Source of the DNA: Octopus vulgaris
Taxonomy: Eukaryota
Length of the DNA stretch: 64,000 bases
Assembly: GCA_951406725.2 (NCBI GenBank)
Contig: OX597822.1
Coordinates: 96,286,001-96,350,000 of the forward strand
Reading direction: 5' to 3'
The translations under genes were made by a program, and so were the position numbers. Positions 13,548-57,911 of the stretch are shown here, piece after piece. Every line of letters starts with the position of its first letter. Position 1 is the first letter of the stretch. The notes beneath the pieces are model-generated. The model was not told the origin of the DNA. It ran no database searches and saw only the letters and a program-made list of their open reading frames with translations.

Positions 13548-13595
13548 GTCTCCGATGATGGGATATAATAAATATCCTGGAAACAGCTGTAAGAC
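13548..13595 (+). ncRNA. Minimal type I hammerhead ribozyme-like motif (CCGAUGA core) in a probable Penelope-like fragment
   Basis: Stem I GUCU/AGAC; stem II GGGAUAU/AUAUCCU; GAAA; palindromic ACAGCUGU; GUA site. Confidence 0.7.
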
Positions 13596-13879
13596 CTTCT
13601 ATTTATAAATGTTCTAGAATCTTCACAGCCTTGGTTTTTTTTTATATCTCATTCTGAAAAATAATTTTTTTATATATACACATGCTGATATACGACCTAC
13701 ATTGGACTCCCTTTTCGCATAATCACCGGACCTGGAGCTTAACAATATAACCTGCCATAGCACGTGCTCAGCATTACCTGACACCTTTGGGTCTTATTAA
13801 CACCATTACCTTCCATAACCTATATGTATGTGTGTGTGTGTGTGTGTGTGTGTGTACACACACACACGCACACAGAGCG

Positions 13880-14007
13880 AGAAAGAAAGAAAGAAAGAAA
13901 GAAAGAAAGAAAGAAAGAAAGGAAGAAAGAAAGAAAGAAAGAAAGAAAGAAAGAAAGAAAGAAAGAAAGAAAGAAAGAAAGAAAGAAAGAAGGAAAGGAA
14001 GAAAGAA
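13880..14007. repeat. (AAAG)n microsatellite
   Basis: Seen directly. Confidence 0.97.
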
Positions 14008-14454
14008 ACTATACAGAACGGATCATGAGAGATGGTTTTATAAAAATACTTAGTTCTGTCATTATAGTTTTACATCCTTCAACGAATATATTTCTGTATT
14101 TATCGAAGGAGAAATAAACATACAATAACTAACGACTGAATTCCATTTACGTCAATCTCCACCTACGACCAACAATGAAACATCATATTTTAGCACTGAA
14201 GTACACGAATAAGTCAAGCGCATTACTGAATGCCGTTAACTTAATTCCTTTCTTTATCTATCTAAATAAATCTGATGCTGGCAGAAAGACTTCCAAATCC
14301 TTTAAGGGCGATACGAATTGGTAAATATTGGCAAATACTGGGACTCCGGAATAACAATTACTTCAAATTAGTGTTATTTTAAGTAAGGAATATTACATCT
14401 GGTTTTATAAAAATGCTAGCTTCTTCACGACCAGAACAGATGTTAGCGGCTATA

Positions 14455-14972
14455 TCTATTTATATAAAACTGTAGTTGTGTGAGTGTCTGTCCCCTTCGA
14501 TTTAGATTCCTAACTACTCCCACATTTTGCGGTGCAGTTTAACCAAATTCGGGTATCTTATAGTCGTGATTCATATCGAGCCCGTCTGGCTATTAGCGCG
14601 CGTCTACGATGAGTCTGCGATTTTAAAAATAATTTAACATCATTTTTTATTCCATTTTAATGCATAATTTTTCGTGTGTCGATGGCGGCGGAGTTGGCGT
14701 CCACGCTCAAACACCTGCACCTGTGTTTGCTTCTCCCCCTTCTTCCCTCCCTCGTGAAGCTGTGGGGAAGGGAGTGTAAGGAAATCAACGTCGTAAAGCG
14801 TTGTCAAGGAGACCAGCGTTCTTTTAGAACAACGACTTCATGGCTTGAAGACACCAAAACAGAAATGGCTAAGAAAGCCCGAATTGGCATCTATAAGGGA
14901 AGTAACTCTCTAAAAAATGCTTATATAGTTATTTCCCTTACAAACCCGAGCAACGCCGGGCGATACTGCTAG
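14455..14972 (+). mobile_element. Helitron family A variant with an extra internal segment
   Basis: TC...CTAG; 14670-14895 is absent from the other copies. Confidence 0.85.
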
Positions 14973-14980
14973 TCTTTATA

Positions 14981-15382
14981 TCTTTATATATAAAACTGTT
15001 GTTGTGTGAGTGTCTGTCCCCTTCGATTTAGATTTAGATTCCTAACTACTCCCACATTTTGCGGTGCAGTTTAACCAAAAGCGGGTATCTTATAGTCGTG
15101 ATTCATATCGAGCCCTTCTGGGTATTAGCGCGCGTCTACGATGAGTCTACGATTTTTAAAATAATTTAACATCATTTTTTTCCATTTTAACGCATATTTT
15201 TTAAATAAAGGGAAGTAACTCTCTAAAAATGTCTACGATGAGTCATCGATTTTAAAAAAAATTTACCATAATTTTTTTTCCATTTTTAATGCATTTTTTG
15301 CTATTTTCTGGCTATAACTCTCTAAAAATGCTTTATAGTTATTTCCCTTACAAACCCGAGCAACGCCAGGCGATACTGCTAG
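14981..15382 (+). mobile_element. Helitron family A, head-to-tail with the previous copy
   Basis: TC...CTAG|T and 3' hairpin. Confidence 0.85.
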
Positions 15383-54184: not shown

Positions 54185-54887
54185 TTACTGAAAGTAGCTG
54201 TCTTCAACTTCCTCCACAGCCTCATGATGGTTCTGAAACCTGGCGCGTGCGTTCCTCGCCGTATCCCTGGGAATAATTTCGAACACTTCATTGATCTTGG
54301 CTACCAGCTCGGGTCTTAGTGTTGCATGCAAAGTGGTTGGTCTCTTTCTCACCGCGCCCTACACACAGTAAGCTATGGGATTACAATCGGGGGGATTAGG
54401 GGGCCCGGAAATTGGGGCTGGTGAAGCTGCAGAAATTCTCCCACAACGACTACTGACTCTTTCTGAAGGTATGGTAAAGGACGCCAAATCCTGCTGCCAC
54501 ACATATGGTCTGGCCTTCCAGCAACAACTTTCTCCAGTCAGGGTTTGACGACAGCCTCTGGTAGCTTCACATAGTCGTCGGAATTGAGCCTTAGATCTTC
54601 TTCAAGAGTGTTGGGATGAATTCAGGTAAGAGGACGCAGTCAGAATGCCTGTTGTGCCCCCTCCTGTTGGTCACGGTTTTGTAGCCTCCGTTGCCGCTGC
54701 CCATGTTACATTTTACAGCAATTACGGTGTCAACAGAGCATTGAGTAGTAGTCATGACGTCGGCATTTTGATACCCGGTACGAACCATCATGATACGGGT
54801 AACTCTTTTCCAGTATTCAGATGGCTTCCAGTTCTCCATGTCAGCTAACTTTTTCACAACTTCAACTTTAATTTTTATGCTCTCCAA
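54185..54887 (-). pseudogene. Internally deleted Tc1/mariner-superfamily transposase, DD37D/maT-like
   Basis: N-terminal HTH-like ORF, then GRPYVWQQD and SPDCNPIAYCV*GAV motifs with stops. Confidence 0.75.
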
Positions 54888-54953
54888 CGCCGTTGACTGT
54901 TCACCAAATATATCAAGCTGTTCTTGAAAAAGAGAAAATAAAATATATTCAAA

Positions 54954-55355
54954 CTAGCAGTGTAGACCAACGTAGCTCGGGCTTGTTTTCTTTTCGACCA
55001 TTTACAATTGGAATTTTTGTAAAGTAAAAATCTTGCATTACGTATCATGTTATTCTCTTTAAGTGAACATTTTTCTGGTTGAAATACACCGAAAAATAGC
55101 GACACAGCAGTCAAAAAATCGTAAAAAAATAGGGATTTTCATAGAAAAAAACGCACCTTTATGATGTAAATAATTTTTGGTGTTAACATGGTCCGATTTG
55201 AATTTTTTCTTCTACAGAATGAAGAGCAAGCCTTCTTCTATTATACTCTCAAATTTGGTCAACTTGCGCCGCAGGGTCTCGGAGGAGATAGTGTTAGTTG
55301 AAGGCTACCAAACCTGCCATACACAGAAAACTTCAGCTTTATATATAGAGAGAGA
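54954..55355 (-). mobile_element. Non-autonomous Helitron, family C
   Basis: Minus-strand TC...CTAG at an A|T site; decayed hairpin cccgagctacgttgg. Confidence 0.75.
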
Positions 55356-55972
55356 TTTAGCCCGAATACCCTGCATAATCACTAACATTTATCCTACCAC
55401 CACACACACACACACAAACACACATACCGCCACCACCACCACCATCATTACCAATACATATCCTCACACTCTTACAGACATACACGCGCCATATACATCA
55501 CCCCTCAATGCACTTAGAACACTAACACTCGTACGCACACGCACACATACGCTTATATACCAGCAACCTTGTACAGTTACAATCAATACATAACATAAAC
55601 ACACGCAGAGATGCATAATCACATCTAATAATACTATTCTCAACTAACAGCAAGACACATAACCAGCTGCAACACTTGAATCAATAAAAACTTAAATTAA
55701 CTGTAGTTAATGACCAACTAAGTAAAGTTTCACTTTAATATTTCAATATATAACTCGAGTTGATTCAATAAAACCAGTCGTAAACGAAGTAATGCATTAT
55801 TGTATTATAACAAGTTATAGTAATGAACTAGTTGACACTAGTACTCACTGTCTGCCCATCAGCTGAAAGCATTAGTATCAGATATTGCTGAATAGTCTAG
55901 ATTTGTTTTTAAATATTTATTCTACAAGACTGAATATTTGAAATGTTATTCGAAACATAGCTTTAAAAATCA

Positions 55973-57500
55973 CTTGCAGAGATACCCGGCGTTGCCCGTG
56001 TCACATGAATTGAAGAATTTGACTTTTCTTTTATATTTTCTCTAATGAACTGGAATACATATGATTCGAATTTCATCAAAACTGGAGATTAAGAATTTTA
56101 ATGGGGGTTCTTTCCCTCTTTACACACCCTAACAAAAATTCTAATCATAACATATTTATCCCATACTACTCACCTTTATGCCCAGATTCTAAAATCCAAA
56201 TCTTATGAAACCCATTCAAAGATTTTTTTTTCTCCTGAAAAATAGAGCACATGGAGCTCTAAAATGTGGGAGTTATTAGGGGGGTCTTAAAGTCAACCAG
56301 AGAAGTTGAATTGTTGGGAATCTTTTTTAACTTGTGCTTTATATCTATTGTTCAAATTTGTTTGATACCTGAAATATATGAATGTTCACTGGGTTTGTAA
56401 AAGAGAGCAAGCTACAGGAAACCAAAAGACGAATGATTACAATAAGCAGTTAGCTACCCTATCCTAGTCGTTACCACTTCCCAATTCCTCACAATACAGG
56501 TGACTGGCACAGCCATAAGATGCATTACGGATCTAAAGCAATTGGGAGTTTAACCCCACTGAAACAAACATTAACAATTGTGTGACATGAGGGCTAAGGG
56601 GAAATGAATGTGTCACCTCTGGAGTTTGCCAATGATCACTATGCCGATAGGTAACCGAACAGAATAAATTTGCAATCTATAAATCTCTTTGAATGGCCAA
56701 TCACTTACCTGGAAAGGCCTTGAAATAAACGTTGCCATCTGGGAACTATCTCTGACTCAATGATGATAAAAGACTCAAAGAGGTCTCCAACCAAATAACT
56801 TTACTCAAAATAACACTTTGCAACTGAATCAGTGAAGGCAAAGATGCCTCTCCTTTACTTGACAATTTATGCACCACATTACAGAAGTCACAATCTAAGC
56901 ATATCTCAAAGCAAAGTCTTACACTGTTGTACCATTGAATTACAAATAACGCTCATCTTGTATGCTCGGGTGACTCAACAGCTTCCAAGACTACAAGTGT
57001 ATTCGCCTTGGCTTGGGGAAAATGACTAAATTGTTGGGGTTAAGCCCCCATTAAGAAGTCTTACAAGCCTCCTAAGTAGTTGAAGCTTTAAGAATATCAC
57101 TTCATTCGTGTTTATTATCTATGGTTAAAATTTCATCAACAGCAAAAATATATGAATTTTCATGGGGGTTATGGTCTCATTTATGCCACCCTCGCTTTCA
57201 AACATATACTGCATTACATCCGCCCTTATGCATTAGAATATAATTTCCAAATTTCATGAAGTTCCATTCCGTACATTTAGCTTTGTTTTGGATCATAAAA
57301 AATGACTAAAATTTGGAAGTTAAGGCCCCCATTAGGGGGTCTTAGAATCCTCATGAGAAGCAGAAACTTTGGGAAATTTTTTTTTTTTACAGTTCCATTG
57401 ATAGACTGGATCTGTAGTCTTCGAATTAGCTTTCTCTTTTCTGTTTTTTAGAAGCCTAATTTCTCAAAATTTATTTAGGCAGTGTGTTACATATCCCAGG
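55973..57500 (-). mobile_element. Old composite Helitron-like element, boundaries uncertain
   Basis: 3' hairpin rc acccggcgttgcccg; internal repeats ccccattag..gggtctta; 56082-56290 is copied at 53106-53330. Confidence 0.45.
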
Positions 57501-57509
57501 ACCCCAATA

Positions 57510-57911
57510 ATGTATATGTATGTATGTATGTATGTATGTATGTATGTATGTATGTATGTATGTATGTATGGGGAGGTTTACGAAAATAAATAAAAGACGA
57601 AGGCAGGTAGTATGGCGCTCAGGAATAGAAATAGAACAAGTCTTTTACGTTTCGAGCCTACGCTCTTCGACAGAAAGATACACAGAAAAGAAACAAGGAG
57701 AGAAAAAATGTGTGTAGGAGCTAACAGTCCATTATGATGTATGTATGTATGTATGTATGTATGTATGTATGTATGTATGTATGTATGTATGTATGTATGT
57801 ATGTATGTATGCATGCATGCATGTATGTATGTATGTATCTATGTATGCATGCATGTATGTATGTATGTATGTATGTATGTATTTATGTATGTATGTATGT
57901 ATGTATGTATG
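57510..57911. repeat. Two (ATGT)n tracts flanking a Penelope-like fragment
   Basis: Seen directly. Confidence 0.9.
57642..57677 (-). ncRNA. Hammerhead-like motif with CUGUCGA core (A6U), probably inactive
   Basis: CUUU CUGUCGA A GAGC guag GCUC GAAA CG UA AAAG. Confidence 0.5.

Follow-up and report, generated by a model that had tools for sequence, protein, structure and literature searches.

Hammerhead-like motifs with variant cores in Penelope-like elements and non-coding repeats of the Octopus vulgaris genome

A 64-kb stretch of the Octopus vulgaris genome (positions 96286001-96350000 of contig OX597822.1, hereafter the window; the genome comprises 2.8 Gb in 227 contigs), with many microsatellites and repeats, holds six motifs that a preliminary description had read as minimal hammerhead ribozymes with variant cores. 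We find that each belongs to a dispersed repeat family (A to F below), and that G5, A9 and a Watson-Crick pair between core positions 3 and 8 (3:8) are kept in all six families. The motifs of families A, D, E and F are the 3' ends of Penelope-like elements (PLEs), and the exact-match counts for these four families run to ~1,800-8,100 in the genome. We think it probable that these predicted hammerheads serve a slow, protein-assisted self-cutting of tandem PLE transcripts, acting as dimers. The six motifs are:

13548..13595, + strand: A motif, core CCGAUGA (U4C, C3:G8), 7-bp stem II, 8-nt palindromic stem III, GUA site
21416..21462, - strand: B motif, core CCGAUGA, 3-bp stem II closed by U.U, 10-nt palindrome, GUC site
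32564..32600, + strand: D motif, core UUGAAAA (U3:A8), 3-bp stem I, 5-bp stem II, 4-nt palindrome, UUU site
43523..43567, - strand: E motif, core GUGAACA (G3:C8), 5-bp stem II, 6-nt palindrome, UUU site
49736..49778, + strand: C motif (decayed copy), core CCGAUGA, stem II mismatched, 8-nt palindrome, in a ~350-nt non-coding unit
57641..57678, - strand: F motif, core CUGUCGA (A6U, C3:G8), 5-bp stem I, 4-bp stem II, 4-nt palindrome, GUA site

The positions and core letters given in the preliminary description were borne out for all six, with limits measured from stem I to stem I; beside the canonical core the letter sets are thus CCGAUGA (A, B, C), UUGAAAA (D), GUGAACA (E) and CUGUCGA (F). A descriptor that left core positions 3, 4, 6, 7 and 8 free found 24 matches in the window, Watson-Crick at 3:8 in 24 of 24, which reduce to five distinct motifs (A, B, D, F and one at 58364-58402) if the 20 copies of D count as one. 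Over 20 block-wise dinucleotide shuffles the mean was 0.45 matches (maximum 3), or 0.15 with 3:8 pairing (maximum 1). The motifs thus exceed chance; equal frequency in shuffled sequence had been named as an outcome that would refute them. The preliminary description expected canonical-core searches to pass the motifs by, and an Rfam scan of the window at E<=5 showed no hammerhead family among the 150 matches listed of 154. The additional motif at 58364-58402 (- strand; core UUGAUAA with U3:A8, 5-bp stem I, 6-nt palindrome) lies in AT-rich surroundings, occurs once within the fetched loci, and may have arisen by chance.

For each motif the 30 best loci were fetched, a sample biased toward the window copy, and genome-wide counts were made with exact patterns whose reversed-sequence controls all gave 0. 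In their majority sequences, families A, B, D, E and F keep the type I topology, the GAAA and the NUH cleavage site, and all six families have palindromes of 4-10 nt as stem III, in keeping with the proposal that family consensi would retain the stems. The window copies of C (broken in stem II) and E (broken in stem I) do not pass the strict descriptor; stem I of E is restored in most copies of the family. Instead of the single extra nucleotide of the preliminary description, A, B and C have an extra letter at both sides of stem II (A.G in A, U.U in B, A.A in C). A core that is either CUGANGA or its U3:A8 covariant is present in D and about half of A; B, C, the rest of A (U4C), E (G3:C8) and F (A6U) have neither.

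The 3:8 contact of the active fold would need a Watson-Crick pair rather than set letters, so that lineages could swap it; in known hammerheads the C3:G8 pair forms in the active conformation and is missing from minimal ground-state structures (PMC3884650, in part; here and below, these words mark a statement that draws on part of the source). We scanned 1,052,587 bases with all seven core positions free and obtained 318 matches, which fell into 44 clusters: five were the families of the preliminary description, one was a mutated E copy that was dropped, eight had G5 and A9, and the 30 without these letters served as decoys. Positions 3 and 8 were paired in all eight of the unselected G5+A9 clusters (one of them in the majority register) against 11 of the 30 decoys (Fisher p=0.003), and counting all, Watson-Crick 3:8 pairs occur in 13 of 13 G5+A9 clusters. 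D and E differ by U:A against G:C at 3:8, with matching changes in their stems. The comparison of clusters thus supports the view that C:G, U:A and G:C at 3:8 are compensatory changes between families, but not within them: no compensatory subfamily was present inside D among the first 100 of 1,785 matches, nor inside E, where 12 double-changed matches, five of them paired or wobble, compare with 3,899.

Linkage of the motifs to PLE reverse transcriptase and GIY-YIG endonuclease frames, a check that had been proposed, was examined by searching with the endonuclease ends that lie upstream of individual D, F and A copies; the query locus is one of the 30 loci in each set, and copies with damage also count. 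The motif was downstream and on the same strand at 24 of 30 loci for D (437-1079 nt from the D-type endonuclease), at 27 of 30 for F (CUGUNGA motif, 297-988 nt from the F-type GIY-YIG) and at 20 of 30 for A (294-1388 nt from the end of the A-type open reading frame, ORF), and over the 30 loci of each it was never upstream on the same strand. For E, one of six extended loci that were fetched (L309) has a clear endonuclease frame, ~0.95 kb upstream of the motif, and the untranslated region of this locus is common to three more of the six. In all four families, then, the motif stands 0.3-1.4 kb after the endonuclease stop on the coding strand. The families also bear features typical of PLEs: truncated partners in inverted orientation, a tail at one end and (TA)n termini. 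D and E are sister PLEs, because the L309 endonuclease shares 48% identity with that of D (E 6e-29) and the two motifs have similar stems; the six elements show no DNA similarity by blastn, so the claim that the repeats are unrelated stands at that level but not for this pair. An initial tblastn linkage search had used queries contaminated with non-coding repeat frames, and only its eye-checked matches were kept. Among the D, F and A query proteins, only F gave a Pfam reverse transcriptase match above cut-off; the match of D was weak (E 0.008) and the A protein piece had no Pfam match. In the A carrier, 5 of 30 loci have a CxCX5C linker, and (TA)n ends occur; the Hydra clade of PLEs is described by such a linker, the lack of a CCHH motif, (TA)n insertion and the presence of a hammerhead. 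A GIY-YIG search also brought up many PLEs with 781-aa frames (RVT_1 plus GIY-YIG), and a U3:A8 motif lay downstream at 13 of 30 GIY-YIG loci. This 781-aa family (L187, L192, L304 and others), with a CxxC linker and the U3:A8 motif before a (TA)n end, looks recently active.

The core variants are carried by large numbers of copies. A 30-mer of F has U6 in 8,145 exact matches and another letter in 122 (8,145/8,267), and position 7 takes all four letters while U6 is fixed. Locus L301 is a complete F element, in which a 1098-aa frame with RVT_1 (E 8e-8) is flanked by a motif on either side. CUGACGA copies at L007 were considered as a canonical sister of F and rejected, the 122 non-U6 matches against 8,145 being mixed over three letters. 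A 19-mer of A has 3,114 exact matches, the first 100 of which begin their core with CCG (46), CUG (44), CCA (8) or CUA (2); a canonical-core (CUGAUGA) subfamily therefore coexists in A with the CCGAUGA form at similar size. CpG decay as the main source of these canonical copies was rejected, explaining little of them because CUG numbers 44 and CCA 8 in this sample.

An 18-mer of the E core has 3,899 exact matches, and inverted truncated partners were found at 11 of 30 E loci by our own reading. In assembled contigs, which cannot show RNA ends, from four runs labelled as four other organisms, no letter other than G3 and C8 reached at least 5%. A metagenome search with the E endonuclease gave one weak, unrelated-looking match. 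A pattern extended 5' had 52 exact matches; 23 of these 52 lie on contig C16 (58.8 Mb, ~2% of the genome), which suggests a young E subfamily restricted to one chromosome. Three E copies with G3:C8 cores stand in tandem at L310:700-1600, with ~280-340 nt spacing, as a retrozyme-like array. The window E copy itself lies inside a composite repeat of ~1.1 kb (~42936-44023, - strand) that also occurs in L002; the start of this repeat resembles a Helitron-type end.

Families B and C, for which first-look candidates numbered 1,244 and 364 (not exact counts), are of a different make. In B, the motif caps a long, extended stem I; the non-coding unit measures ~355 nt and has a truncated, inverted partner on its upstream side. 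In C, stem I is long and stem II weak, and 19 parsed copies show stem II in two paired states besides the mismatched state of the window copy. Repeat offsets are ~355 nt in B (partial tandems, 9 of 30 loci) and ~350 nt in C (19 of 30 loci). The tandems are mostly partial, two same-strand motifs are present in the window C element, and inverted partners occur for both kinds of unit. Self-pairing z scores, from two copies of each family, 171-174 nt around the motif and 40 shuffles, were -9.1 and -8.1 for B (-8.1 for the window copy) and -1.3 and -2.4 for C. Minimum-energy folds of single B and C copies lack the hammerhead junction, as do those of two units of the D-derived array described below; this is expected for dimer-dependent motifs and hence uninformative. 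A tblastn-based search of the loci found no PLE coding link for B or C, so that here the proposed linkage was not recovered; PLE pieces upstream in L113 (B) and L138 (C) were considered as carriers and rejected as separate insertions. In size and layout B and C match the animal non-LTR (non-long-terminal-repeat) retrozymes, which are non-coding, ~150-450 nt and carry one type I hammerhead, and whose self-paired RNAs are argued to derive from PLE terminal repeats (PMC7229834 and bioRxiv 10.64898/2026.07.22.740005, both in part). Those retrozymes have mostly canonical hammerheads in dimers to large multimers and were shown as circular RNAs; B and C, known from DNA, form partial tandems whose minimal motifs have U4C. 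B and C are likely retrozyme-like units, non-coding PLE dependants moved in trans by PLE proteins.

The other features of the window that belong to these families are:

~13297-13664, + strand: A stub, the non-coding 3' stub of a PLE with a Hydra-clade-like linker
32469..32551, - strand: inverted, 5'-truncated partner of the D stub
~32554-32650, + strand: D stub, the 3' stub of a PLE
~43365-43581, - strand: E stub, the 3' stub of a PLE sister to D
44686..47267, + strand: 104-nt tandem array on part of the D stub, with 19 motif copies at 44727-47234
49491..49545, - strand: inverted C motif (PLE-type inverted partner), 80% by blastn
50054..50108, + strand: second, tandem C motif, absent from the preliminary description, 89% by blastn
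~57571-57731, - strand: F stub, the 3' stub of a PLE

The PLE pieces of the window are truncated stubs only and probably dead, and tblastn with four PLE proteins found no PLE coding remnant there. The D motif is widespread (a 35-mer has 1,785 exact matches in the genome), but the array is confined to the window: a 33-mer across its junction has 12 exact genome matches, 12 of 12 within the window, as for one local amplification. The candidate status of the 104-nt array as a dispersed retrozyme was rejected for the same confinement of its junction. At 46180-46760 within the array, part of the flanking sequence is duplicated and part is inverted, suggesting rearrangement during the amplification. 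Further hammerhead-like motifs were met beside fetched loci L062, L009, L038/L080, L086, L199, L207, L302, L076/L197 and L137, with cores CUGAUGA, CUGAAGA, UUGAUAA, CCGAUGA/CCGACGA and one CAGAAGA; the hammerhead repertoire of this genome exceeds the six families. The window also has a repeat of 184-190 nt in short tandems, one family on both strands (17046-17480, 22375-22907, 34631-35069, 40001-40365 and 52319-52869), which gave zero matches to the hammerhead descriptor.

How such folds might work is suggested by earlier biochemistry. PLE minimal hammerheads cleave weakly, and only as dimers or trimers (PMC4209133). A PLE hammerhead of the anole depends on the protein of its element to cleave, and in the C3G/G8C double mutant cleavage is regained in part (PMC11167929, in part). 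Hammerheads altered at position 6 have low activity (A6C cleaves at below 0.1 per min), and in vitro activity is also reduced by U4C (PMC3088659, in part). In the mechanism that we favour, tandem copies would place two motifs in one transcript, their palindromes could pair into two stems III, the element's protein would assist folding, and cleavage after H17 would free unit-length RNA for reverse transcription; the presumably slower U4C and A6U cores would likely be tolerated, since low activity would be enough.

Several observations weigh against this mechanism. In the anole PLE, mutating the hammerhead left in vitro insertion unaffected, and none of the RNA reads had its end at the site of cleavage (PMC11167929, in part). 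U6 is kept in 8,145 of 8,267 F matches though changes of A6 are expected to be slow; the D and E palindromes are A-U only, with a UUU site, and stem I of D has only 3 bp. The first 100 of the 1,785 matches of D include nine with an unpaired C3.A8 and none with a change at position 8, which suggests that a D sub-lineage with a broken 3:8 pair was amplified. Compensation within families E and D is absent (the 12 double changes in E; none in the first 100 of D), the E-PLE link comes from the one locus with a clear endonuclease frame, and B and C are not tied to any PLE protein.

The strongest competitor, to which we would give about one chance in four if pressed for words, holds that these are PLE-derived folds without useful cleavage, kept as a protein binding or folding signal or simply by inheritance, the odd cores being drift fixed by few masters. 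Copy number would then reflect few masters and not selection on each copy; the expected slowing by A6U and U4C (PMC3088659, in part), the unpaired C3.A8 sub-lineage in D, the harmlessness of the anole mutations for insertion in vitro (PMC11167929, in part) and the spread of Naiad PLEs without hammerheads (again from part of the source) all fit this. Set against it are the Watson-Crick 3:8 pairs in 13 of 13 G5+A9 clusters, reached through double changes as selection on an active fold predicts, and the variation of N7 in F beside a fixed U6, as at the free position of a hammerhead. A second alternative overlaps with the first and strikes us as somewhat less likely still: only the canonical-core and U3:A8 families would work, and G3:C8, A6U and U4C would mark dead derivatives moved in trans by active relatives. 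The canonical subfamily of A, about as large as the CCGAUGA form (44 against 46 among the first 100 matches), accords with this, as does the failure to see an intact E-type ORF among the six extended loci fetched; yet a complete element whose open frame spans 1098 aa has A6U in each of its terminal repeats, F is without a canonical sister (its 122 non-U6 matches spread over three letters), and G3:C8 is two transversions from either known pair. That the motifs are chance look-alikes in AT-rich repeats is very improbable, for although the descriptor is permissive (in 1.05 Mb its stem rules let through 30 decoy clusters, one of them in seven family B loci), shuffles gave 0.15 paired matches against five distinct motifs, the motifs have a fixed place in PLE ends, and both their architecture and the UUGAAAA core match published PLE hammerheads. 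Slow, protein-assisted cutting by dimers thus seems to us the likeliest account. A bolder form of it can be put forward as a tentative proposal, which we regard as possible but would not bet on: PLEs would be conducting a natural mutagenesis of the hammerhead core. The G3:C8 and A6U cores would then work, in thousands of copies, as dimeric ribozymes assisted by protein, a non-canonical pair closing stem II would make up for U4C, and the natural consensus would be N3-Y4-G5-W6-N7-N8'-A9.

Hammerhead variants with a diminished stem III are reportedly associated with PLEs, going by the title of a 2017 paper by Lunse, Weinberg and Breaker. Much of what we describe is already in print, namely the topology, the extra letter, the palindrome, the PLE location, the U3:A8 pair including UUGAAAA, natural U4C and the dimer model, and the repertoire extends a known class; the class being known, the finding widens a consensus and adds no new system. 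The minimal hammerheads of PLEs (Cervera & De la Pena 2014, PMC4209133) share the type I topology with short stem I, the extra letter between A9 and 10.1, the palindromic stem III, the placement in PLE terminal repeats and the opposite-strand pairs; the U3-A8 covariant is reported there, with ~1,300 matches in S. mansoni, and Fig. S3 lists UUGAAAA and UUGAUAA cores. The rows of that figure (56 by its legend), in contrast to the families here, include no G3:C8, U4C or A6U and no cephalopod, and an extra letter at both sides of stem II, as in our U4C families, is not in its consensus. Cleavage of small PLE-associated hammerheads as dimers is also reviewed elsewhere (PMC6765202, in part). Natural U4C (in a viroid), A6C (in a phage) and a U.U base of stem II were published by Perreault et al. 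2011 (PMC3088659, in part), as rare single examples, unlike the thousands of amplified copies here, and G3:C8 and A6U go unnamed in that part of the text. The Anolis Poseidon PLE hammerhead resembles ours in its host element, in cleaving only with protein and in the tail signature of its insertions, but its G3:C8 is an engineered rescue where that of family E is the natural state (PMC11167929, in part). In the literature searched, outside which lie Lunse 2017 (which may list such variants), Arkhipova 2017, Przybilski & Hammann 2007, figures and bioRxiv supplements, we found no natural G3:C8 (3,899 copies here), no fixed A6U, no PLE-borne U4C family and no U4C with a 10.1/11.1 mismatch. The parts consulted of PMC10085705, PMC13725137 and PMC8495972 have nothing on natural variants, and the words 'hammerhead' and 'ribozyme' are absent from the part seen of the main text of a 2026 Octopus vulgaris repeat annotation (PMC13282606).

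This genome offers matched natural pairs for cleavage tests, which bear on the in vivo activity of PLE hammerheads and on the plasticity of their cores: the U3:A8 and G3:C8 sisters D and E, the U4 and C4 forms of A, and a full-length A6U PLE. Here, counting ribozymes with a CUGANGA descriptor or Rfam overlooks several thousand copies per family or more. If the variant cores are indeed active ribozymes, canonical-core counts of animal ribozymes would be missing whole high-copy families.

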